A program made the position numbers and the translations under genes. Below, piece by piece: positions 3,243-25,292 of a DNA stretch of 37,278 nt; positions within the stretch are counted from its first letter, which is position 1; every line of letters begins with the position of its first letter. The notes beneath the pieces are model-generated. The model did not search any database and was not told the DNA's origin. It saw only the letters and a list, made by a program, of their open reading frames with translations. Origin of the DNA: an uncultured Candidatus Saccharibacteria bacterium (GTDB lineage Bacteria > Patescibacteriota > Minisyncoccia > UBA6257 > GWB1-50-10); contig CAZHWX010000001.1 of the NCBI GenBank assembly GCA_964536045.1, forward strand, positions 1-37,278. The letters run 5' to 3'.

Positions 3243-4496
3243 ATGAATAGGCCTAAAATAATTCTAGGAATTGTAGCGGTAGTAACGGTGTTTTTTGCGG
3301 TGTTTGCGTATCAGCCAGCGTGGGAAAAAATAAGTTCGTTCCGACCTTGGAATTTAGGGTTAGATTTAGCGGGTGGTACGGTTTTAACCTACCAAATTGA
3401 TTTAAGTCAGGTTGGTTCTACCGATAAATCTTCGGTAGCAGAGGGTTTGCGAGACGTAATTGAAAAGCGAGTAAATTTGTTCGGAGTAGCGGAACCGAGA
3501 GTTTATTTACAGGATGCGGGTGGAGAAAAAAGATTAACCGTAGAACTCGCGGGTATTAAAGATGTAAAAAAAGCGATTGATCAAATTGGCGAAACTCCAT
3601 TTTTAGAATTTCGTACAGTTCGAGAGGAAAGTAGTACCTCGGTAGCTTTTTTACCAACTGATTTAAATGGCCGGTATGTGGTTAGTGCACAAGTGGGAAG
3701 AAATGAAAATACTTTTTCTCCAGAAATAAATTTTTCTTTAAATGATGCGGGAGCAGTTTTATTTCAAAATTTAACTCGAGAAAATGCGGGCAAAGCACTC
3801 TGTTTATTTTTAGATGGTAGTCCGATTATTCCTGACGATATAAATGATAGCTGTCCGCGGGTGCAGGGAGAGATCGCAGGGGGTAAGGCAGTAATTACTG
3901 GTCAGTTCACTTTAGATCGAGCTAAGTCGATCGTAGAGCGCTTTAATGCGGGAGCACTACCAGCTCCAATTGTGTTAGTTAATCAACAAACGGTAGACGG
4001 AGATTTTGGCGCGGATTCCTTAAATAAGGCCTTGTGGGCGGGCATAATTGGAACCTTATTTATTGTGGTATTTATGCTTGGTTATTACCGAACTTTGGGT
4101 ATATTCGCCACTTTAGCTCTCTTGGTTTATGTGGCTCTAACCTTGGGCTTGTTTAAGTTATTGCCTATAACTATGACGCTTTCGGGTATCGCCGGATTCG
4201 TGCTTTCTATTGGTATGGCGGTAGATGCTAATATTTTGGTCTTCGAACGAACTAAGGAAGAAATTAAAAAGGGTAAGTCTAAAACGGAAGCCTTAGAAGA
4301 AGGCTTTAAACGAGCTTGGACTTCTATTCGGGATTCTAATATTTCTACTATTATCACTTCTTTGGTGCTTTATTTTTCTACCTCCGGTTTCGTACAGGGT
4401 TTTGCTTTAACTTTGCTCTTAGGTGTGTTGATGAGTATGTTTACCGCAATTACGGTGACGCGAAGTATGCTCCGGGTCTTTATGAAAAATAAATAA
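3243..4496 (+). CDS. secD: protein translocase subunit SecD
   Basis: N-terminal TM segment, 'LGLDLAGGT' motif, periplasmic domain, and a C-terminal 6-TM block with 'GIAGFVLSIGMAVDANILVFERTKEE'. It is immediately followed by secF. Confidence 0.92.
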   Translation: MNRPKIILGIVAVVTVFFAVFAYQPAWEKISSFRPWNLGLDLAGGTVLTYQIDLSQVGSTDKSSVAEGLRDVIEKRVNLFGVAEPRVYLQDAGGEKRLTVELAGIKDVKKAIDQIGETPFLEFRTVREESSTSVAFLPTDLNGRYVVSAQVGRNENTFSPEINFSLNDAGAVLFQNLTRENAGKALCLFLDGSPIIPDDINDSCPRVQGEIAGGKAVITGQFTLDRAKSIVERFNAGALPAPIVLVNQQTVDGDFGADSLNKALWAGIIGTLFIVVFMLGYYRTLGIFATLALLVYVALTLGLFKLLPITMTLSGIAGFVLSIGMAVDANILVFERTKEEIKKGKSKTEALEEGFKRAWTSIRDSNISTIITSLVLYFSTSGFVQGFALTLLLGVLMSMFTAITVTRSMLRVFMKNK

Positions 4497-4506
4497 TTAA
4501 AAAAAT

Positions 4507-5397
4507 ATGAACAATTTTAATTTGTTAGATTATAAAAAATACTTTTTGGCCTTTTCTGGAAGCTTAACAATTATCGCTATAGTTTTAGTTTCTATCTTTG
4601 GTTTTAAACCTGGTATTGATTTACAGGGTGGAGCGGAGTGGGCTATAAAGTCGGAGGTTTCGGGATTTGAAATTAAAGCAGCCGAAAAATTAGCGGAAAT
4701 AATTGATGCACCGGTTACAGTTCGACACTTGGGAGATGGCACGGCAATTTTACGTTTACCTGCCACTACCGAAACTGAACACCGAGCTTATGAGGTTAAG
4801 TTAAAAGAAATTGGAGAGTTTACGGAAGTTGGTTTTACTAGTGTGGGCCCGACGATTGGAGCGGAGTTAAGAAGTAGGGCAATTACCGCTATGATTTTGG
4901 TATTGCTCGCGATTTCTTTATATATTGCCTTCTCTTTCCGTAAGGCGTCCAAGCCAGTTACTTCTTGGAAATATGGCTTGATCACTTTAGTGACTTTAGC
5001 TCACGATGTAATAATCCCAGCGGGTATGCTGGCGGTTCTTGGTAAGTTTATGGGGATAGAAATGGATACTAATTCCATCGTGGCACTACTCGTCGTAATG
5101 GGTTTTTCGGTACACGATACGATTGTGGTTTTTGATCGTATCCGAGAACACTTGGTACGAGGAGAAACTGGGGATTTAGCAGGTATTGTAAACCGAAGCG
5201 TGAGAGAGACTTTTGTGCGCTCTATCAACACTTCTTTGACTTTGGTATTGGTGTTGGTCGCCCTCTTAGTTTGGGGTCCAGAATCTATGTTTTACTTCAC
5301 TTTAACCATCTTAGTGGGTACGGTTTTTGGTACTTATTCCTCCATTTTTGTGGCCTCTCCGCTCCTTTATTTGTGGGGTAAAAACGCCTCTCGTTAG
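4507..5397 (+). CDS. secF: protein translocase subunit SecF
   Basis: 'GIDLQGG' motif, a 6-TM SecDF-type block and 'HDTIVVFDRIRE'. It is adjacent to secD. Confidence 0.92.
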   Translation: MNNFNLLDYKKYFLAFSGSLTIIAIVLVSIFGFKPGIDLQGGAEWAIKSEVSGFEIKAAEKLAEIIDAPVTVRHLGDGTAILRLPATTETEHRAYEVKLKEIGEFTEVGFTSVGPTIGAELRSRAITAMILVLLAISLYIAFSFRKASKPVTSWKYGLITLVTLAHDVIIPAGMLAVLGKFMGIEMDTNSIVALLVVMGFSVHDTIVVFDRIREHLVRGETGDLAGIVNRSVRETFVRSINTSLTLVLVLVALLVWGPESMFYFTLTILVGTVFGTYSSIFVASPLLYLWGKNASR

Positions 5398-5448: not shown

Positions 5449-6465
5449 ATGACGATCGACCAATTATTAGAAAAATGGTTTGCCGAATTCAACCCGAAAC
5501 AACGCAAAGTTGTTACGGCTCGTTTTGGTTTAAAAAGTGGAGAAAAAGCTACTTTGCAAGAAATTGGAAATGAATTAGGTGTAACTCGAGAACGAGTTCG
5601 CCAAATTGGTGATTATTTACTTAAAAAACTTTCGGCCCCGATTCAAAAAGAGGCGGAAACCTTATTACGCTCCGCCGAAAGCTATTTAGCTTCTTTGGGT
5701 GGTGTAGTAAAAGATGATGAGTTTTTAGCAGAAGTAGCTGATAAGTTTTTAAATAAAGAATCAGCTAAAAATTTGGATCGCAAACTTGCCTTTATATTTT
5801 TAGCGGCGGGCATGCCACAGTATCAAAAAGAAACGGATGATTATCATGCGTTTTGGTATACCGATGAAGCTGCTAAGAGAAAGTTTTTAGATTTTAGTAA
5901 AAAAGTTCATCAGCACTTTAAATCTTCTAAAAAAGAAAAGATTTTAAGTGATAAATCTTATCGTAAGGAATTTCCAGATTTGGAATCTAAGCGTGAACTT
6001 AATATTGCCAAATTTTTTGGAGTAAATATGTTTGGAGATTTTGGTTTGTCGGAATGGCCGGAGATTAGACCAAAAACAATTCGAGATAAGGCTTACTTGG
6101 TTTTGAAAAAGAATGCCAAGCCTATGCACTTTGAAGAAATTGCTAATGCAATTGGTAAATTACACCCAGAGCGCAAGGGAGCTCACATTCAGACTGTGCA
6201 TAATGAATTAATTAAGGGTGCAGAGAAGTTTGTATTGGTAGGACGAGGCATTTATGGTTTGAGTGAGCAGGGTTATGAGCCGGGTACGGTACGAGAGGTT
6301 ATAACTAAATTATTAAAGAAGAAAGGACCGATGGGTGCCGACGAGGTGGTTCGTTTGGTTAATCAACAGCGCTTCTTAAAGCAGAACACCATTATGTTAG
6401 GTTTACAAAATAAAAATTATTTCCGTAAATTGAATGACGGTCGGTATTCGGTAAAAGAGGCTTAA
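5449..6465 (+). CDS. sigma-70 region-4-like HTH plus HARE-HTH (RNAP delta-like) DNA-binding protein
   Basis: The N-terminus 'RKVVTARFGLKSGEKATLQEIGNELGVTRERVRQI' is a textbook sigma region 4.2 HTH. Residues around 210-270, 'IRDKAYLVLKKNAKPMHFEEIANAI...IQTVHNELIKGAEKFVLVGRGIYGLSE', fit the HARE-HTH pattern of the Gram-positive RNAP delta N-domain. No sigma region 2 is present. Confidence 0.7.
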   Translation: MTIDQLLEKWFAEFNPKQRKVVTARFGLKSGEKATLQEIGNELGVTRERVRQIGDYLLKKLSAPIQKEAETLLRSAESYLASLGGVVKDDEFLAEVADKFLNKESAKNLDRKLAFIFLAAGMPQYQKETDDYHAFWYTDEAAKRKFLDFSKKVHQHFKSSKKEKILSDKSYRKEFPDLESKRELNIAKFFGVNMFGDFGLSEWPEIRPKTIRDKAYLVLKKNAKPMHFEEIANAIGKLHPERKGAHIQTVHNELIKGAEKFVLVGRGIYGLSEQGYEPGTVREVITKLLKKKGPMGADEVVRLVNQQRFLKQNTIMLGLQNKNYFRKLNDGRYSVKEA

Positions 6466-6481
6466 GCTCTGTGTAATTGGC

Positions 6482-6492
6482 TGGTATATAAT
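6482..6492 (+). promoter_or_regulatory. possible extended -10 element (TGgTATATAAT)
   Basis: TATAAT at 6487-6492 is preceded by TGG at 6482-6484. No good -35 is present. It lies 39 nt upstream of the ATG at 6531. Confidence 0.3.
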
Positions 6493-6520
6493 GAAGAGGC
6501 ACCAAGTAAGGTGTCTCTTC
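6493..6520. other. 11-bp hairpin between the HTH gene and the downstream membrane module
   Basis: GAAGAGGCACC (6493-6503), loop AAGTAA, then GGTGTCTCTTC (6510-6520), with one G.U pair. No T-tract follows, so it is not a canonical terminator. It could be a 5'-UTR structure. Confidence 0.4.
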
Positions 6521-6530
6521 GGTTAAAAAA

Positions 6531-7898
6531 ATGATTAAGGATATTGTAGGTGGATTAGCAGATTTATTTATTGAGTTTTTCCGCAAGGAAGAGTCTTGGT
6601 TTATTTTGCTTTTTATTGGAGCCTCTACGGCGGTTCCTTTTTTTGCGGTAAAAGATTTTGAATTACTACTTTGGGGATTTATTAAATTAACTGCGCCATT
6701 TTGGCTGGCGTTTCCTTTATGGTTTTTATTTTCGGAGATCATGCGTGCGGTGCGCCAAGAAGAATATAAGCGGGGTTTGAAATGGGCCTTTTTAGAATTG
6801 CGGATGCCACGCGAAGTAAGTAACAGTCCAAAGGCCATGGAGCAGATACTTTTAGCAATCTCTACTTTACGGAATGCACCTAAAAAATGGAAAGATAAAT
6901 ATAAGAAAGGAGAAGTAACTCAATGGTTTTCCTTGGAAATAGTTAGTTCGGGTGGGGAAACTAAATTTTTCTTACGAGTACCGGAAAGTCATCGAGACTT
7001 TTTGGAGGCAACTATTTTTTCTTACTATCCAGAAATAGAGGTTACTAATGCTAAAGATTATGCGCCAGATTTACCAAAGGACGCGCATGAATTGGAGGCG
7101 CGTAATCAAAATCTCTGGGGTACCGAATTTATTTTGGACAAGGCGGAGGCTTTTCCAATCAAAACATATCCAAAATTTGAAAGTAGTGGAGAAGGTCGGA
7201 TGGATCCTATTTCTTCCTTATTAGAAGTATTAGGAAAAATTAGGGTAGGGGAAACGGTTTTTATTCATACGATTATTGCGCCAGCGGGAGACGCTTTAAA
7301 AAAAGCAGGGGAAGGAGAACTTAAAAAATTAAGGGCTCCAGAAACCGCAGAAGTGGGTGGACAAAAAGTTGCGGTTCCGCATCCACCAGGTAGAGCCGAA
7401 CAGTTAGCTGCGGTGGAGCAAAATCTATCTAAGACTTCCTTCGATACTCTAATTCGAGTTGGTTATATTGGTCCTAAGGATGGATTTGCGGATGGTTATG
7501 TGCGAGGAGCGGTAATTGGAGCCTTTAATCAGTACGCTGGTTTAAATTTGAATTCTTTTAAAGCAAATGGCGGAACGGATGTTTTAAAGGGGGCTAAGGC
7601 GCCATTTAAAGTAAAGAAAATAATTTTTAGAAAGCATTGGTTTTTACATATTCTTAAAAATCGACTTCCACCCCCAGAAACTTTTTGGGGTCAGATCATA
7701 ACTTCCTATCGCTATCATCGTAATAATGCCTCTAAGAGGTTTTTAATGGGGGTAGAGGCGGTAGCTACCATTTTCCATCCACCAACCTCTGTAGTCTTAA
7801 CTGCGCCCCACTTAAAACGAGTAGAAAGTCGTAAATCTGGTTTGCCCGCCGGTTTGCAGATTTTTGGAGGAGAAAGTGATATAGAAAAATTTCAATGA
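6531..7898 (+). CDS. conserved hypothetical membrane protein (N-terminal 2-3 TM, large soluble domain)
   Basis: 455-aa ORF with uninterrupted coding. The hydrophobic N-terminus is followed by 'LELRMPREVSNSPKAMEQILLAI...WFSLEIVSSGGETKFFLRVPESHRDFLEATIFSYYPEIEV'. From memory this resembles the N-terminal module of CPR-restricted hypothetical/HerA-VirD4-like proteins, but no ATPase motifs are present here. Confidence 0.6.
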   Translation: MIKDIVGGLADLFIEFFRKEESWFILLFIGASTAVPFFAVKDFELLLWGFIKLTAPFWLAFPLWFLFSEIMRAVRQEEYKRGLKWAFLELRMPREVSNSPKAMEQILLAISTLRNAPKKWKDKYKKGEVTQWFSLEIVSSGGETKFFLRVPESHRDFLEATIFSYYPEIEVTNAKDYAPDLPKDAHELEARNQNLWGTEFILDKAEAFPIKTYPKFESSGEGRMDPISSLLEVLGKIRVGETVFIHTIIAPAGDALKKAGEGELKKLRAPETAEVGGQKVAVPHPPGRAEQLAAVEQNLSKTSFDTLIRVGYIGPKDGFADGYVRGAVIGAFNQYAGLNLNSFKANGGTDVLKGAKAPFKVKKIIFRKHWFLHILKNRLPPPETFWGQIITSYRYHRNNASKRFLMGVEAVATIFHPPTSVVLTAPHLKRVESRKSGLPAGLQIFGGESDIEKFQ

Positions 7899-8395
7899 AC
7901 TTAAATTTACCAGGTAGTTGGCAATTCGGTTTAGAAATAGCTCGTTGGGTTTTTTTGGTGTTGGATGCGGTTCTGCTTTTTGGAGCGGTTTATTTTTTGC
8001 GTAAGGGGTTAAAAATTAGACCAGAATTTACCTTAAAACATACTCCTCGGGAGCGATTTATGTTATTGAAAAACGATGCTAGCTTGCAAATGGCGTGGGA
8101 AAAAATAAAAGCTAAGGCGGAAACTAATCCACCCGCCTCGTACGTTTTAACTATTATCGAGGCAGATACTTTTGTGGATGATGTTTTAAAGCGATTAGGT
8201 TTACCAGGTAATACCATGATGGAGCGCTTAGAAAAACTTAATAGCCAAGAGTTTTCTAGATTGGAAGATTTACGTCGGGCTCACCGGATTCGTAATGCCT
8301 TAGTCCACCGTCCAGGGTTTACTGTAACTCGTGAACAGGCAGTAGAGATGATGGGAACTTATGAGGCGTTTTTGAGTGAGTTGGAGGTTGTTTAG
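7895..8395 (+). CDS. membrane-anchored HEPN/DUF4145-like protein (Rx4H motif)
   Basis: ATGA overlap with the upstream gene. One N-terminal TM segment is followed by 'RKGLK'. The C-terminal helical domain is 'IIEADTFVDDVLKRLGLPGNTMMERLEKL...LRRAHRIRNALVHRPGFTVTREQAVEMMGTYEAFLSEL' and carries RNALVH (Rx4H) at nt 8291-8308. Confidence 0.55.
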   Translation: MNLNLPGSWQFGLEIARWVFLVLDAVLLFGAVYFLRKGLKIRPEFTLKHTPRERFMLLKNDASLQMAWEKIKAKAETNPPASYVLTIIEADTFVDDVLKRLGLPGNTMMERLEKLNSQEFSRLEDLRRAHRIRNALVHRPGFTVTREQAVEMMGTYEAFLSELEVV

Positions 8396-8452
8396 TAAAA
8401 TATTTTTTAGAAATAGGTTGAGTTTTTCTATTCGTGATAAAATAAACCAGTA

Positions 8453-9985
8453 ATGCCAAAAATATTTTTGGAGCGGAATTTAAATACAGATAAAAAAGAC
8501 TGGCAGGAGGAGTTAGAGTTATTAAGTGGAGAATCTGTGGTTTTAAGAATTTCCGAGAAAACTAAATTTTCGGCAAAAACTTTTGCGGAGTTAAGAGAGG
8601 AGGCTAGGGCTAATAAAATTGATTTGGTTTTAGAGGTATTAAACGAATCCGACGCTAAATTAGCGAGGGTGGCAGGTTTTAATGTGAGGATGCCAACTAG
8701 GAAGGGTCCTTCAGTTTCCGATATTGTGTCTAGGCGAGGAGAGATAAAGGCTCGACTACCAGATTTTTTGGCTCGTGGTCCGCGCCCCGAAGAGCATAAA
8801 TTTTTAAGTCGTAATCCAGAGGAGCACAAAAATTGGAGTTTTAAAAAGGCTCTAGGTTATGGAGTGGGCCTTATTTTAGTAGGTGTAATTTTAGTAATTG
8901 CTAATTGGGTTTTGCCGCGAGGTACGGTGCGAGTGGTATTACATCCGTGGCCGGTTCAAATAAATGAAACCATTAAAGTATCTACGGAGGTTTCAGTCCC
9001 CGTAGTTTCTAGTAATTCTGTTTTGCCAGGGGAAATGATTTCGGCAAAAAGAAATTTAGAAAAAACTTTAACTTCTACTTCTACGGTTAAGGTATTGGAG
9101 AAAGCTAAGGGACAACTAACTATATTTAATGCGTTTGGCACTACCCCTCAAACTTTAGTGGCCACTACTCGTTTTGAAACTCCAGAGGGAGTGGTATTTC
9201 GTTTAGACGAAAAAACTACAGTGCCAGGAGGTAAAAAAAATTCGGAGGGAGTTTTGGTGCCGGGTCAGATTACGGTTGCGGTTACTGCAGACAAGTCTGG
9301 GTCAGAGGGTAATATTCCACCAACTAAACTTTGGAAAATTCCAGGTTTTAAGGGAACCCCTCGTTATGAAAAATTTTATGCGGAATCAGCCATGGCTATG
9401 AGTGGCGGCTTTGAGGGAGAACGAGCAGCGCCGGTGGCGGGAGAAATAGAGTTGGTAAAGAAAAATTTAGCCTCTGATTTAGAGTCTGCTCTACGGGGAG
9501 AGTCCTCGGTTTTGATGTCGGAAAATTTTACTTTATTGCCAGGGGTAGAGGACTTTAGATTGGTTAGGGAGGAGGTAGATTTTGATGTAGCAGATAAAAG
9601 TAAGTTTTCAGTTTTTGTAGAAGGTGAGTTGCGTAGTTTAGTTTTTGAAACCGAGATGTTAAAAAGTGTTTTAACAGATTTATCGGCTAAAAAATTAGAA
9701 AAAAAGAATACACTCACTATTCGAGATTTTTCGGTGGGATATACCGAGCCTCAAATGAGCTGGGCTTCGGGGAGTATGGTTTTTAGAGCTACTGGAACTA
9801 TTGTTTTTGAAGAGAAAGTAGATAAAGAAGGACTATCCGAAAAACTTAAGGGTTTAAATGAGGAGGAGATAAAAAAAGTTTTATTTGATTTGCCGGGTTT
9901 GGATAGGGTATCGGTAAATTTTTGGCCTTTTTGGGTAAAGTCGATGCCAAATAATCCAACTCGGATAGAGGTTATTTTTGAATAG
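8453..9985 (+). CDS. hypothetical single-pass membrane protein with large C-terminal (probably extracytoplasmic) domain
   Basis: 510-aa ORF. It has a charged N-terminal region of about 130 aa, one TM segment ('GVGLILVGVILVIANWVL'), then about 350 aa rich in beta-type segments ('GQLTIFNAFGTTPQTLVATTRFETPEGVVFRLDEKTTVPGG'). No family was recognised with confidence. Confidence 0.55.
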   Translation: MPKIFLERNLNTDKKDWQEELELLSGESVVLRISEKTKFSAKTFAELREEARANKIDLVLEVLNESDAKLARVAGFNVRMPTRKGPSVSDIVSRRGEIKARLPDFLARGPRPEEHKFLSRNPEEHKNWSFKKALGYGVGLILVGVILVIANWVLPRGTVRVVLHPWPVQINETIKVSTEVSVPVVSSNSVLPGEMISAKRNLEKTLTSTSTVKVLEKAKGQLTIFNAFGTTPQTLVATTRFETPEGVVFRLDEKTTVPGGKKNSEGVLVPGQITVAVTADKSGSEGNIPPTKLWKIPGFKGTPRYEKFYAESAMAMSGGFEGERAAPVAGEIELVKKNLASDLESALRGESSVLMSENFTLLPGVEDFRLVREEVDFDVADKSKFSVFVEGELRSLVFETEMLKSVLTDLSAKKLEKKNTLTIRDFSVGYTEPQMSWASGSMVFRATGTIVFEEKVDKEGLSEKLKGLNEEEIKKVLFDLPGLDRVSVNFWPFWVKSMPNNPTRIEVIFE

Positions 9986-10005: not shown

Positions 10006-10034
10006 TTGACTCTCTTAACCCCTTTCCATATAAT
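10006..10034 (+). promoter_or_regulatory. sigma-70-type promoter TTGACT-17 nt-TATAAT for the infA-rpsI operon
   Basis: The -35 TTGACT lies at 10006-10011 and the -10 TATAAT at 10029-10034, with a 17-nt spacer. The -10 ends 21 nt upstream of the infA ATG. Confidence 0.65.
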
Positions 10035-10055: not shown

Positions 10056-10274
10056 ATGAGTGAAACCGAAGTATTTAAGGTAGAGGGGGTAATAACCGAA
10101 GCTCTACCGAGTCTTTTATTTCGGGTTTCTTTAACTGAGGATAATCGGCCAATTTTGGCTCACTTGGGTGGCAAGCTTAAGTTGAATCGGATTCGCGTAG
10201 TACCCGGCGATCGGGTAGTGGTCGAAATGACCAAGTACGACGAAAATCGAGGACGCATAGTACGTCGCTTATAA
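10056..10274 (+). CDS. infA: translation initiation factor IF-1
   Basis: 72-aa S1-like OB fold: '[18 protein letters not shown]...[39 protein letters not shown]'. Confidence 0.97.
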
Positions 10275-10279
10275 ACAAA

Positions 10280-10393
10280 ATGAAAGTACGTTCTTCTGTA
10301 AAAAAAATCTGTAATAAGTGCAAAACCGTTCGTCGCAAGGGACGGGTTTATGTTGTTTGTGAAACTAAGAAACACAAACAAAGACAAGGTTAA
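10280..10393 (+). CDS. rpmJ: 50S ribosomal protein L36
   Basis: Not in the supplied ORF track because it is too short. Hand translation gives [37 protein letters not shown] (37 aa), with the CxxC...C...H zinc ribbon. It sits in the canonical position between infA and rpsM. Confidence 0.93.
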
Positions 10394-14388: not shown

Positions 14389-14466
14389 GGGGCAAGAGCT
14401 CGGTCGTGGTAGAGCGTCGGACTATTAATCCGGAGGCCGAAGGTTCGAATCCTTCTTGCCCCGCCA
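14389..14466 (+). tRNA. tRNA, Asn-like body, anticodon reads ATT (A34)
   Basis: Hand-folded cloverleaf: acceptor GGGGCAA/TTGCCCC, D arm GCTC-GGTCGTGGTA-GAGC, anticodon arm TCGGA-CTATTAA-TCCGG (anticodon 14424-14426), T arm GAAGG-TTCGAAT-CCTTC, discriminator G, then an encoded CCA. Confidence 0.8.
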
Positions 14467-20943: not shown

Positions 20944-21884
20944 TGAAAAATAATTTAGAAATAGTAACCATCGGAACTGCTAGTCGAGATTGGACCATGG
21001 TGGGCTCCGAGGATGGACCGCTTACCTGGGGAGATAAACGAGAAGCAGAATCAGTATATGAGGGGTTGGGTGGAGGGGCAGCAAATGCGGCGATTACCTT
21101 TGCTCGTTTTGGATTAAAGACTGGATTGGTGGCTCGTTTAGGTAAAGATGAGTCGGGAAAAAAAATTGTTCAAAATTTAAAAAGTGAAGGAATAAAAGTT
21201 TTTTCGGCTTGGGATGCAAAAAATGCTACTGCTTTAAGTGCAATTGCTTTAAATAAAGCCGGAGAAAGATTAGTTTTTTCGCACCGTGGAGCTTCAGATA
21301 ATTTAACCGAGAAAGATGTGCCAGCTGGAGCTTTGGCTAGTGATTGGTGGTATGTGGTGCCGGGTCGCATTACCGCACCAATAATTTTTAAGTTAATGAA
21401 TGTGGCCCTTAAGAAGGGGATTCGTTTGGCAATTAATCCCTCCAAGAGTTTTATTCATCGAGCAGATTTTGTGCGACGTTTAGCGGATATTTCGGTGTTG
21501 TTAGTAAATAGAGAAGAGGCTGGAATGTTGGTTAATTTACCGCCGGCGGCAGATCCTGTAGCAATGCTTCGCAAAATTCCGAGTGGAGTAGCGGTTATCA
21601 CCGATGGTCCACGAGGAAGTTGGGCTAAGGATAATTCTGGAATTTATCATGTAGGTGTTTTTCCAGAAAAGAAAATTGCAGATCGGACCGGTGCCGGGGA
21701 TTCTTTTGGTTCGGCTTTTGTAGCGTCTATTATTCGTAATAAGCCAATAACCGAGGCCTTGCGAGTAGCTTCGGCTAATGCCACATCTATGGTAGAAACA
21801 ATTGGAGCTCAGACGGGTATTTTGCGAGCTGCTCAATTAAAAGCCCCACGTTGGAAAGAATTAACAATCAAAAAAATCTCTTAA
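20943..21884 (+). CDS. PfkB-family carbohydrate kinase (ribokinase-like), substrate unassigned
   Basis: TAATG overlap with transketolase C. 'GGGAANAAITFARFG' is the N-terminal GG motif and 'DRTGAGDSFGSAFV' is the PfkB signature 2 catalytic-base motif. Confidence 0.85.
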   Translation: MKNNLEIVTIGTASRDWTMVGSEDGPLTWGDKREAESVYEGLGGGAANAAITFARFGLKTGLVARLGKDESGKKIVQNLKSEGIKVFSAWDAKNATALSAIALNKAGERLVFSHRGASDNLTEKDVPAGALASDWWYVVPGRITAPIIFKLMNVALKKGIRLAINPSKSFIHRADFVRRLADISVLLVNREEAGMLVNLPPAADPVAMLRKIPSGVAVITDGPRGSWAKDNSGIYHVGVFPEKKIADRTGAGDSFGSAFVASIIRNKPITEALRVASANATSMVETIGAQTGILRAAQLKAPRWKELTIKKIS

Positions 21885-23080
21885 TGAATCAAGGCGCCTT
21901 AAAGCTTTCCAAAATTTTAGGAACGCTTCCAGAAAACTTGGAGCAAGCTTTACCAACTGAAATTTCAGCTGGTTTTTTAGAACAGACCGCAGAAGAAATA
22001 GAGAGCAAAATAAATAAGTTTAAAAGTGAATTAAAAATATTGGAGAATTATCCGCTGGATTTACGTTTTCGTTTGGGCAAAGAAGTAATAATCCAAGACT
22101 CAAAAATAAGAAAAATATTTGGCGAAAATCCATTTGAAGAAGCAGTAAAACATTGTGAGATGGCGAGTGGTTTGCAGATGGGTTGGTTTTTAAAATTGGA
22201 TAAGGCCCAGGATATTTTAAGAGAGCGTCCGCCACAGGGAGTAATGGATTTTACCGGGGTTACTAGCGTAGAAGAGCTTTTACAGAAATATGAAATTACG
22301 GAAATTTTTAGCGCTCTTCGGTTTTTAGAAACTAAAGAATGGATGCACGAAACTTTTGCTTCCGCATATTCCAAATTAACGCCTGCGGATTTTGAAGAGC
22401 GAAAAATAAAAATTCAAGTCTTGAGCAGTGTTTGGTTGCCGGTGGCGGAGAAGTTTATTCTCAAAAAGAGACACAATGTAAGTCACCTAAAAGAGTTGGG
22501 GGTTATCTTTTTAAATCCGTTAAAACCAGAAATTCCGGGAGCGTTACTTCGAGACTTTGCTTTGCTTTTTCATTATTTACGAGAAGTTTCTTTTTATAGT
22601 AAGTTATTTAGAGCTGTAGCGGGGGAACCAAATTTTGCCGAGCGATTAGCTTCTTTTTTGCGCGGAGATATTTTAGAAAAAAAATCGGTGGAGGGAGCGG
22701 AATGGTTAATAGTTCAACGTTATTTAGATAAAGAAGATCCAACCGACTTACGCTTGTTGTTGCCTAGGGTTAATCCAGAGGCTTTACATTGGCGACGTGC
22801 GGAAAGAGATTTGGCAGTTTTTGGTAAGGCCCATTCTTTAGATTTGGAGTTGTGGGAGGGAATGGATTCAGTAGCAGAATTTTTGGATGGGGAGGTAGTT
22901 AGTTTTGATTTAGAAGATTCCTTAATGTCCATAATTAATTTTCCAGATGGGGAGAAGGGTTATGCTTATCACCAAAAAGAAGCTTTGTGGTTGGAGTTAG
23001 CAATTCGTTTAGCAGGGACAGAGGAAAAATTAGAAGAAATGTTGGTGGCCAATTTTTCTACTGGGACAATAAAATTTTAA
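21884..23080 (+). CDS. hypothetical protein (about 398 aa, soluble, no recognised family)
   Basis: The ATG at 21884 overlaps the PfkB stop (TAATG). The track start at 21851 is a TTG inside the PfkB gene. It is a long uninterrupted ORF in the operon frame with no TM segments and no motif I can assign. Confidence 0.6.
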   Translation: MNQGALKLSKILGTLPENLEQALPTEISAGFLEQTAEEIESKINKFKSELKILENYPLDLRFRLGKEVIIQDSKIRKIFGENPFEEAVKHCEMASGLQMGWFLKLDKAQDILRERPPQGVMDFTGVTSVEELLQKYEITEIFSALRFLETKEWMHETFASAYSKLTPADFEERKIKIQVLSSVWLPVAEKFILKKRHNVSHLKELGVIFLNPLKPEIPGALLRDFALLFHYLREVSFYSKLFRAVAGEPNFAERLASFLRGDILEKKSVEGAEWLIVQRYLDKEDPTDLRLLLPRVNPEALHWRRAERDLAVFGKAHSLDLELWEGMDSVAEFLDGEVVSFDLEDSLMSIINFPDGEKGYAYHQKEALWLELAIRLAGTEEKLEEMLVANFSTGTIKF

Positions 23081-23961: not shown

Positions 23962-23980
23962 GAAATTCTTAGTCTTTTTT
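23951..23980. terminator. bidirectional terminator shared by convergent genes
   Basis: AAAAAGACTAAGAA-AT-TTCTTAGTCTTTTTT is a perfect 11-bp inverted repeat flanked by A- and T-runs. It overlaps both stop codons (23959-61 on the plus strand, 23979-81 on the minus strand). Confidence 0.8.
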
Positions 23981-25292
23981 ATTCCAATTCCATTTTGCGA
24001 AGTTCGCCGTTTACGGAGAGATAAAATAGTAAGTTACCAAATTGTTTGTAGTCTTTAACTCCTTTAGCTAAGACGGTTCCATTTAGGGGTAAGAGTTCAT
24101 CTACCTCAACAACTCTTAACTCGTCATCCCAGAGGCCTATTAAGTGGTTATTATCGAACCAATTTATTTTATAGATTCGGCCCTCGTGTTCGGGAGCGAG
24201 AGTTAATTTATCACCAATGTTTTTTCGGAAGTCTTCTTCCCATTTGTCTAAATAAAGAACATGGAGAAGATTGCGACTTAAGAAGAGTAGACGATCGCCC
24301 TCTGGGCTCCACATGTATTCTTCTGCTTTATTTTCCACTAATTCGGAGGTAGAGGTGGAATTTTTAAAGAGCCAAAGTTTCCCTTTATCGTCTAAACCCG
24401 CTACTAGGTTGGCATTAGAGTTAGGTTTTAAATCTGCAATTTTTAAACTAGTAGAGGCAGACCAGTTACCACCAAATAAAAACTTGGTGATTTCTACTTT
24501 TTTGCTATCTGCACTTACTAGGCCGGAATCATTTAGAGCGAAAGCGGTAGGTTTAAGATTAGAAAATTTTTCTAATTCATTTTTCTTTTCATCCGCTAAA
24601 AAAATTCCCTTATCGGTTTCTATAAAAAGTTTTTTAGGGCTGAAGGGGTGAAAGAAGAAATTTTTAGGAGTGCCGGCTAATTTACTACCAGCTAATTCTG
24701 AAAACCAAAGATTTAAATTAATCGCGGTTTCCGGGGCGTCTAGATTTATAAGAAATAGTTTTTTGTTCTTGTCTTCTACAATTATTTCATCGCTCTCAAA
24801 ATTTTGGCTAACTATATTTTTTCCCCTAAGTTCTAATCCGCGGAACTTAAGAGTGCCGGATTGTTTTAGAATCATTTCGTCGCCTAAGACCCAAAAGCTT
24901 TCGGTGCTAGTGGCAATTAGGGTGGAGGTGGATTCTATAGGAAATAAACGAATATTGTTGCGAGCTAAAACTCCGCCAGCCGGAACTAATAAAGATTTAG
25001 ACCAGGTTATATATTTTTCAGATTTAGCGATAACTACGTAAGTCTCGGGTAATAAATTTCTAAATAACAGGCCCGATTCAAACCAATTACTAGAATGGGG
25101 TCGCTCCTTGCCGTTTAAGGTTATTAGGCTGGGCTTTTCCGAGAAGCGTAGATAAATACTTCCGGTAGGGACAAGTTTCAATTCTCGCCAGTTAATAGCT
25201 AGACCTAAGCCGGTTAGGGTGAGGTAGGCGCCAACTAGGAAAAAGATCCCGACCGTGGCCCAAAATAGGCCTTTCCGTTTACCTGAAGTCAT
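23979..25292 (-). CDS. hypothetical membrane-anchored protein (PEGA-like plus possible beta-propeller ectodomain)
   Basis: N-terminal TM segment 'LFWATVGIFFLVGAYLTLTGLGL'. 'LITLNGKERP...LLPETYVVIAKSEKYITWSKSLLVPAGGV' resembles a PEGA beta-sandwich. A later 'WSPEGDRLLFLS' is PD40/TolB-repeat-like. The long ORF excludes the plus-strand shadow ORFs. Confidence 0.55.
   Translation of the reverse strand: MTSGKRKGLFWATVGIFFLVGAYLTLTGLGLAINWRELKLVPTGSIYLRFSEKPSLITLNGKERPHSSNWFESGLLFRNLLPETYVVIAKSEKYITWSKSLLVPAGGVLARNNIRLFPIESTSTLIATSTESFWVLGDEMILKQSGTLKFRGLELRGKNIVSQNFESDEIIVEDKNKKLFLINLDAPETAINLNLWFSELAGSKLAGTPKNFFFHPFSPKKLFIETDKGIFLADEKKNELEKFSNLKPTAFALNDSGLVSADSKKVEITKFLFGGNWSASTSLKIADLKPNSNANLVAGLDDKGKLWLFKNSTSTSELVENKAEEYMWSPEGDRLLFLSRNLLHVLYLDKWEEDFRKNIGDKLTLAPEHEGRIYKINWFDNNHLIGLWDDELRVVEVDELLPLNGTVLAKGVKDYKQFGNLLFYLSVNGELRKMELE

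Follow-up and report, generated by a model that had tools for sequence, protein, structure and literature searches.

This article concerns three consecutive plus-strand genes on a 37,278-nucleotide stretch of DNA from an uncultured Candidatus Saccharibacteria bacterium (contig CAZHWX010000001.1 of GenBank assembly GCA_964536045.1), which we refer to, at its full length, as the window. We call the genes G1 (6531–7898, 455 residues), G2 (7895–8395, 166 residues) and G3 (8453–9985, 510 residues). Their open reading frames (ORFs) are laid out exactly as an initial annotation of the window had described: the end of G1 and the start of G2 share the letters ATGA (7895–7898), and a spacer of 57 nucleotides (8396–8452), AT-rich in composition, lies between G2 and G3. 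All three genes are real: each has hundreds of homologues, and the ratios of nonsynonymous to synonymous substitution (dN/dS) of G1 and G3 against an 86%-identical relative are low. A hydrophobicity scan finds hydrophobic segments at residues 22–40 and 45–63 of G1, 17–35 of G2 and 136–154 of G3. The segment of G3 is therefore internal, after some 130 residues, in agreement with the detailed description in the initial annotation. In the explanation we favor, and consider reasonably probable, G1 and G2 form the membrane platform of a split ATPase system that is inherited vertically, derives from type IV secretion systems (T4SSs) and here lacks the adjacent motor gene, while G3 is a separate envelope protein whose ectodomain resembles phage baseplate J.

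The three genes sit in housekeeping surroundings. On the 5′ side are secD (3243–4496), secF (4507–5397) and then a plus-strand gene (5449–6465) for a 338-residue protein with a Sigma70 region 4 (E 5.6e-14) and a HARE-HTH, or RNA polymerase delta-like, domain, and without sigma regions 1–3. On the 3′ side come infA (10056–10274), rpmJ (10280–10393), rpsM, rpsK, rpsD, rpoA, rplQ, rplM and rpsI. The remainder of the window is also housekeeping: TGT, an M23 peptidase, aminoacyl-tRNA synthetases, a penicillin-binding protein (PBP), transketolase and glyceraldehyde-3-phosphate dehydrogenase (GAPDH). The G+C fraction stays at 0.39–0.41 throughout, a uniformity that gives no sign of a foreign island; together with the fixed synteny described below, it led us to reject a prophage or mobile island.

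G1, a predicted DUF8128 protein

Homologues of G1 are plentiful. A word-based search returned 233, nearly all of them 420–480 residues long and belonging to Patescibacteria/Paceibacteria (Jorgensen-, Brenner-, Wolfe- and Liptonbacteria). An exhaustive profile search at E≤1e-3 matched 2,906 cluster representatives (clusters of 50% identity), and the best 150 of these profile matches are mostly stand-alone proteins of about 400–530 residues. Precomputed annotation places PF26449 (DUF8128) on P0002, a protein 86% identical to G1, and on most of the 120 homologues listed. G1 itself would belong to PF26449 by virtue of its near-identity to P0002 rather than through a direct score. A Pfam scan of G1 gave no match even at E≤1, the copy of Pfam used probably being without a PF26449 model, and scans of NCBIfam and PADLOC with G1 returned nothing. 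Nor did we find a paper on DUF8128 or PF26449. The peptides that the initial annotation quoted as distinctive are all present in G1, and the C-terminal tail (residues ~412–446) is very strongly conserved across the family, reading FHPPT..VLTAPH..RVESRK.GPPAGL.IFG.

The AlphaFold model of G1 (built on a 117-sequence alignment) has a predicted local distance difference test score (pLDDT) of 87.4 and a predicted template modeling score of 0.81, the C-terminal tail being of low confidence. It shows two N-terminal transmembrane helices and an alpha/beta domain that would lie in the cytoplasm. When the model is compared with the Protein Data Bank (PDB) by Foldseek, the best 12 fold matches are all TrwK/VirB4 chains of the R388 T4SS (E 6e-5 to 2e-3, probability 0.99–1.0, template modeling score (TM-score) 0.31–0.36), and the next are unrelated ferredoxin-like folds. 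A transmembrane hairpin at the N terminus is typical of VirB3 and of VirB3–VirB4 fusions, and G1 has one too. The likeness to VirB4 nevertheless appears to hold at the level of fold only. Unlike TrwK, G1 has no ATPase domain: the protein ends at residue 455 without a P-loop, there is no ATPase domain in Pfam or NCBIfam scans and no match to CagE_TrbE_VirB (PF03135). The idea that G1 is itself a VirB4 was rejected on this ground, since a VirB4 ends in a RecA-like ATPase domain bearing Walker A and B motifs and G1 does not. A profile search with G1 against PDB sequences found no match. The setting differs from that of VirB4 as well, G1 and G2 lying in a fixed chromosomal housekeeping context and not in a conjugative element.

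Relatives of the domain also turn up in phages. Among BFVD models, the best matches of G1 are proteins of the large Bacillus phages JL (913 residues), G (gp156, 825 residues) and Slash (551 residues), with E-values of 2e-16 to 3e-14. Profile alignment agrees, with G1 88–332 aligning to gp156 17–263 (hhalign probability 95%, E 3.6e-8) and G1 115–269 to positions 59–201 of the 824-position profile phrog_5156 (E 1.7e-8). In gp156, the G1-like part is followed at 380–715 by a region with weak DUF87/HerA and TraG-D_C matches, and the adjacent gene, gp155, encodes a VirB4-like ATPase. G1 and the phage proteins thus have a DUF8128-like N-terminal domain in common, but the phage versions are fused to the ATPase region, the aligned region is without G1’s transmembrane hairpin, there is no HEPN-like partner, and identity is only about 14–18%. 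Searching 50,697 phage genomes with G1 by tblastn gave no match, and a scan of IMG/VR gave no relative. The initial annotation had described the soluble domain of G1 as the N-terminal module of HerA/VirD4-like proteins, present here without the ATPase; the PF26449 assignment, the TrwK/VirB4 folds and the gp156 alignment all bear this out.

G2, a HEPN-like membrane protein

G2 is a single-pass membrane protein with a soluble domain of about 125 residues. Five Lys/Arg residues directly follow its transmembrane segment and none precede it, a charge distribution that predicts a cytoplasmic location for the soluble domain. A word-based search with G2 recovered just 11 proteins, and orthologues were therefore drawn from the 80 related loci described in the next section. 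In alignments of these orthologues, W68, A90-D91, H130, R133, N134 and H138 are near-invariant. The last three make up an R-N-x3-H element, R133-N-A-L-V-H138 in the window, which matches the canonical R-x4-6-H motif of HEPN domains and is well kept (R133 in 76/81, N134 in 77/81 and H138 in 74/81).

This element near the C terminus of a small domain is one of the features that G2 has in common with the HEPN superfamily (DUF4145 and HEPN_Swt1). DUF4145 matches G2 at 16.8 bits (E 0.0073), below its cut-off of 23.1; HEPN_Swt1 matches 5 of 70 orthologues, at best with E 1.1e-4; and one homologue (P0248) carries a precomputed PF13643. G2 differs from that superfamily in being membrane-anchored and in belonging to a housekeeping cassette, as well as in matches that stay below the Pfam gathering scores. 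The sole match of G2 in a PDB profile search, the N terminus of Rpb5 (E 0.012), was marginal and we took it as chance. Of the earlier description of G2 as a membrane-tethered HEPN-like protein, the tether stands, and the HEPN-like part is plausible: a reasonable call, though unproven, with DUF4145 under its threshold.

The cassette and its ATPase in relatives

To place the genes in context, we used a synteny sample of one genome per GTDB species, a scan of which gave 80 loci. G1 and G2 are adjacent in all 80. Directly 5′ of G1 lies the Sigma70_r4/HARE-HTH gene in 77, and secF and secD are found upstream in 66 and 63, respectively. What usually follows G2 is not G3. In 74 of the 80 loci the next gene encodes a P-loop ATPase of about 440–500 residues, at a median gap of nine nucleotides, and in L071 the ATPase gene lies just 5′ of G1 instead. 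The usual third gene is thus the ATPase, and the view of G1, G2 and G3 as one module is not supported.

The cassette ATPase has the Walker A motif GKSGVGKS and the Walker B motif YLYVDEFH. The example at L004 (11943–13382) exceeds the Pfam cut-offs for TrwB_AAD_bind (39.4 bits against 20.5; E 4.7e-10), TraG-D_C (27.8 against 22), T4SS-DNA_transf (26.0 against 20.1) and DUF87 (27.0 against 23.2). Its best NCBIfam matches are TraD (6e-15), the VirD4-like CD1115 (7e-13) and CedD (2e-7), with the equivalog cut-offs missed, and the ATPase also matches R388 trwB by tblastn. By these matches it is a member of the type IV coupling protein (T4CP) superfamily and not a named equivalog. Like VirB4, it belongs to the FtsK/HerA/VirB4/VirD4 superfamily. 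VirD4, TrwB and TraD have an N-terminal membrane anchor, however, and the cassette ATPase does not: a hydrophobicity scan of the L017 member found no transmembrane segment, and the L004 sequence starts soluble. With a soluble ATPase, it would fall to G1 or G2 to provide the membrane anchor. About 18 loci carry a second T4CP-like ATPase, which in the four scanned has a C-terminal treble-clef zinc finger (PF23477).

Coupling-protein genes of this kind are not rare in Patescibacteria. Quinonero-Coronel et al. 2025 (PMC12102498) report 5,713 VirD4-like T4CP homologues in 2,918 Patescibacteria genomes, about two genes per genome, of which 148 lie near virB4; the orphan T4CP genes are described there as possibly exapted for other functions, their role being left open. 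The cassette ATPase is likewise VirD4-like. A term search of that paper gave no relevant mention of DUF, HEPN or secD, and we found no paper that describes a cassette of G1, G2 and the ATPase.

The window itself is without the ATPase. A tblastn search of its 37 kb with 80 cluster-0 ATPases gave a best E of 0.02, over short stretches only, and its other large ORFs are, by Pfam, aminoacyl-tRNA synthetases, PBP, transketolase and similar proteins, with no T4CP ATPase among them. Besides the window, only L001, L002, L024, L027, L033 and the 86% relative (L081–L083) are without it. In a neighbor-joining tree of G1, these ATPase-less loci occupy three places (the window with L081, L001 and L002; L024 with L033; and L027), which implies that the ATPase was lost or relocated repeatedly.

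Downstream of the ATPase, 33 loci have tandem arrays of Cys-rich, CxxC-repeat paralogues of about 580 residues with no Pfam match. The array of L035 (8814–16030) has as many as four of them in succession, and in L004 the array runs from 15634. A CutA1 gene often lies between the ATPase and the array.

G3 and its neighbors beside infA

G3 has the architecture that the initial annotation ascribed to it. Its structure model (pLDDT 88.3) comprises a small alpha/beta N-domain (residues 17–79), a disordered linker, a transmembrane helix (130–153) and an ectodomain of 355 residues. More than 300 homologues were found, many of them with PF21110 (GlxA beta-barrel) and a few with PF04865 (Baseplate_J). 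The ectodomain resembles the GlxA barrel (Foldseek E 2.8e-7, about 135 columns) and, with Foldseek probabilities of 0.98–1.0, the baseplate wedge proteins of four phages, namely cyanophage A-1(L), Mu, Pa193 and XM1 (chains 8kea_d, 9ki1_H, 9b45_j and 7kh1_A5, over 348–376 columns). Global TM-scores are low, at 0.15–0.19, since the domains are oriented differently with respect to one another. At the sequence level, G3 of the window reaches 17.1 bits against PF04865, below the cut-off of 21.1, and matches phrog_6, annotated as ‘baseplate wedge subunit’, at 2.9e-6; a weak PF21110 match also backs the fold.

The ectodomain thus appears, on its predicted structure, to have the multidomain wedge fold of the Baseplate_J family (gp6/gp47/gpJ). 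G3 differs from that family in being cellular and membrane-anchored, with an N-domain predicted to be cytoplasmic, and in the absence of tail genes: neither the window nor the surroundings of G3 homologues hold tail, sheath, tube or spike genes, the neighbors being alaS, a gene we call X, infA and ribosomal genes. A literature search for ‘baseplate J’ in Patescibacteria gave nothing relevant. With such clear relatives at the level of fold, the verdict of ‘no assignable function’ was too strong for G3, as it was for G1.

It is the company G3 keeps that sets it apart from G1 and G2. A gene for infA was found in 15 loci, and in 14 of them G3 is its direct 5′ neighbor. In nine loci it is preceded by X, a soluble protein of about 370–430 residues with the conserved C-terminal motif NQLLRRRAKWL, and X keeps this position directly 5′ of G3 across distant Patescibacteria. 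Examples of X are at L005 13342–14496, L036 13295–14407, L088 7788–8996 and L089 7673–8893, among others. In L088 and L089, which are from such distant Patescibacteria, the order is alaS–X–G3–infA, and neither G1 and G2 nor the ATPase are found close by (X identified by hhalign at probabilities of 99.9% and 98%, respectively), while in L090 G3 comes after alaS, without infA. X itself has no match in Pfam, NCBIfam or PDB sequences. It is missing from the window, where a 409-residue ORF (21851–23080) was compared with X and ruled out.

Because G3 tracks infA and occurs without G1–G2 in L088 and L089, it is part of a separate conserved unit, (alaS)–X–G3–infA, and not of the G1–G2 cassette. The ATPase and X are both absent from the window’s clade, and so the two units abut. 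The gene order is lineage-wide, with nothing displaced, contrary to the suggestion that a three-gene module here occupies the place of secY–adk–map ahead of infA.

The initial annotation drew a different conclusion, that G1, G2 and G3 make up one envelope-associated complex with a role in secretion, uptake, attachment or defense. There is something to be said for this. All three are membrane proteins, and in some ways the neighborhood fits: the genes are contiguous in the window, in the 86% relative and in L001, L002, L024 and L033 (in L001 a G3-like gene comes directly after G2), and some 11 other genomes have G3 within 2–6 kb 3′ of G2. Against it are the loci just described, in which G3 follows alaS with no G1–G2 (L088, L089 and L090; X is present in the first two), the near-constant place of G3 ahead of infA, and the ATPase that stands after G2 where G3 would be expected. 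Even the spacing differs, since G1 and G2 overlap whereas the AT-rich spacer intervenes before G3. We regard a single complex as unlikely. Checking gene neighborhoods therefore left G1 and G2 together and G3, contiguous with them in some genomes, as a separate unit.

A putative split motor

What might G1 and G2 do? In the explanation we favor, two unrelated conserved units meet at the locus in this lineage. The first, in its full order, is secDF, Sigma70_r4/HARE-HTH, DUF8128, HEPN-like and T4CP-like ATPase, conserved across Paceibacteria. The two transmembrane helices of G1 would anchor a platform resembling the N-terminal domain of VirB4 at the cytoplasmic face of the membrane. In relatives, the soluble VirD4/TraD-like ATPase would dock on G1, and the two would work at the membrane as a motor for nucleic acid or protein; we infer this docking from the analogous cases of VirB3/VirB4 and the fused gp156 of phage G. 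The conserved tail of G1, predicted to be unstructured, may be the docking element. G2 would sit beside G1 in the membrane, its HEPN-like domain in the cytoplasm acting as an RNase or nucleic-acid-binding domain. Together, G1 and the ATPase would amount to a VirB4- or gp156-type protein split in two, with G2 encoded between the halves. In the second unit, G3 would be a membrane-anchored envelope protein, normally encoded after X and before infA.

Several observations weigh against this explanation. The link between G1 and VirB4 is one of fold, with TM-scores that are low, and hhalign found no similarity between the G1 profile and the single sequences of R388 TrwK, pSK41 TrsD and pSK41 TrsE. 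The HEPN assignment of G2 consists of a motif and sub-threshold matches, the PDB search having given only the marginal Rpb5. No ATPase partner was found in the window, so that the motor model is not demonstrable for this genome. And G1, G2 and G3 stand side by side in six or more further genomes, among them L001, L002, L024, L033 and L081, so that a functional link with G3 may exist.

Both HEPN domains and HerA-like ATPases are found time and again in defense systems, which raises another explanation, that G1–G2, with or without the ATPase, are a membrane-tethered anti-phage system in which a HEPN RNase effector is paired with a HerA/FtsK-superfamily ATPase as sensor or motor. Besides this general association, one can cite a marginal PADLOC match between G2 and RTasHEPN (E 0.055), a weak match of the cassette ATPase to NCBIfam HerA_antiphage (6.6e-4) and the fused form carried by phages. 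But PADLOC gives no significant match for G1, G2 or G3, and the genes have native composition and are constrained to the degree of housekeeping genes. Moreover, the cassette occupies a fixed site after secDF and the Sigma70_r4/HARE-HTH gene in 77–80 of the 80 species, and a fixed chromosomal site points to vertical inheritance, unlike a variable defense island. A role in defense seems to us improbable, about as improbable as the single complex.

A little less likely again is that G1 serves the canonical T4SS of Patescibacteria (VirB4/VirB3/VirB6) as an accessory subunit of the TrsD type, encoded apart from the rest. The fold of G1, like that of the VirB4 N-terminal domain, speaks for it. So does PMC12102498, where TrsD is described as a remote homologue of the VirB4 N-terminal part and is reported to be, among T4SS components, the most abundant in these bacteria. 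The same paper has TrsD homologues mostly beside virB4, however, and near G1–G2 no VirB3, VirB4, VirB6 or VirB8 genes were noticed, in ±10-kb flanks that were not screened exhaustively. As for the extra ATPases present in 18 loci, the four that were scanned are T4CP-like, with a zinc finger at the C terminus, rather than VirB4-type. At 455 residues G1 is twice the length of TrsD (227 residues), and hhalign gives the G1 profile a probability of 0.3% against pSK41 TrsD.

Selective constraint without an adjacent ATPase

Against the 86%-identical relative, dS is near saturation for every gene and all ratios are rough, but they are low: dN/dS is 0.05 for G1 and 0.095 for G3, among ribosomal and Sec neighbors at 0.03–0.11. 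G2 has a dN of 0.175, with dS saturated. In all ATPase-less lineages the tail of G1 and the R-N-x3-H of G2 are intact. Decay of G1 and G2 is unlikely, given these low ratios and the intact tail and motif in the absence of the ATPase. With constraint still strong, G1–G2 probably still work, either through an ATPase encoded elsewhere or in a role that is independent of it.

That G1–G2 are functionless leftovers is, accordingly, very improbable: although no ATPase gene was found in the window, nor within ±10 kb of G1–G2 in L081, L002, L024, L027 and L033, and the three tree positions imply that it was lost repeatedly, the ORFs are intact and full-length, the invariant residues of the family are kept, the arrangement persists between lineages whose G1 proteins are just 47–50% identical, and dN/dS, at 0.05 for G1, led us to reject pseudogenization.

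Transcription signals and other features of the window

Just 5′ of the G1 start codon lie a conserved −10-like element, TGGTATATAAT (6481–6491), and a stem-loop (6493–6520), both on the plus strand. The stem is of 11 bp, with a folding energy of −19.6 kcal/mol (z −3.3); L081 retains it through several compensatory substitutions, with a longer loop, and many relatives have a terminator-like hairpin and a −10-like element in the same spacer. The position of these two features suggests that G1 begins its own transcription unit. Between G3 and infA there is a near-consensus sigma-70 promoter (10006–10034, plus strand; TTGACT-17-TATAAT, 11 of 12 positions), and the infA–rpmJ–rpsM operon accordingly has a predicted start site of its own 3′ of G3. 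The Sigma70_r4/HARE-HTH gene upstream of G1 has a dN/dS of 0.028, among the lowest of the neighborhood; its product may be an RNA polymerase-binding or DNA-binding factor tied to the cassette.

Some further features of the window deserve mention. The gene for rpmJ (37 residues), between infA and rpsM, overlaps a 143-residue ORF call for rpsM that is over-extended, and the true start of rpsM is probably the methionine of MRISGTN. Two more ORFs of over 400 residues have no Pfam family at E≤1e-4. One is the plus-strand ORF already mentioned in connection with X (21851–23080), and the other lies on the minus strand (23979–25292) and has homologues at the equivalent site 3′ of rpsI in L017, L019, L029 and L039.

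A tRNA gene on the plus strand (14389–14463; Rfam, 63 bits) reads CUAUUAA in its anticodon loop, which gives it the anticodon AUU (Asn, A34). Such an AUU anticodon, with A34, is normally avoided. The anticodon arm resembles that of Escherichia coli tRNA-Asn with G34 changed to A. At the same position L081 has an unrelated tRNA-Glu(CUC), and a metagenome scan with the tRNA found just an unrelated tRNA-Lys(UUU). The gene could be real or could be an assembly error.

The 86% relative has a pair of genes, for a bAvd accessory protein and an RVT_1 reverse transcriptase, that resembles a diversity-generating retroelement (L081 5268–6645, L082 2165–3542); the insertion separates the gene for the M23 peptidase from secD. 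A similar pair occurs in L089 (15477–16878). The window has none, and its secD begins 66 nucleotides after the peptidase gene.

Biological meaning

Patescibacteria have tiny genomes and depend on host cells, and a membrane machine that all Paceibacteria species sampled keep at one and the same place in the chromosome is therefore probably important to their biology. The orphan T4CP ATPases of these bacteria now have a constant set of partners, a DUF8128 membrane protein and a membrane-tethered HEPN-like protein, and DUF8128 is now tied to the fused ATPases of large Bacillus phages. What was an annotation gap has become a testable hypothesis, that of a split, membrane-docked translocation motor. 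The clades without the ATPase, the window’s included, are natural experiments on what the platform does by itself. G3, a cellular membrane protein with an ectodomain like that of a phage baseplate, emerges as a separate conserved partner of X beside infA.

A more ambitious proposal can be made, and we make it tentatively, as a possibility well short of an even chance. It is that G1, G2 and the orphan T4CP-like ATPase constitute an undescribed, vertically inherited housekeeping machine of Paceibacteria: a split motor derived from T4SSs or conjugation that would move nucleic acid (or protein) across the one membrane of these host-dependent cells, with G2 as an RNase or nucleic-acid gate, and with some clades rewired to run without a dedicated ATPase. 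If this were true, a split housekeeping motor would account for the thousands of orphan T4CP genes in Patescibacteria.

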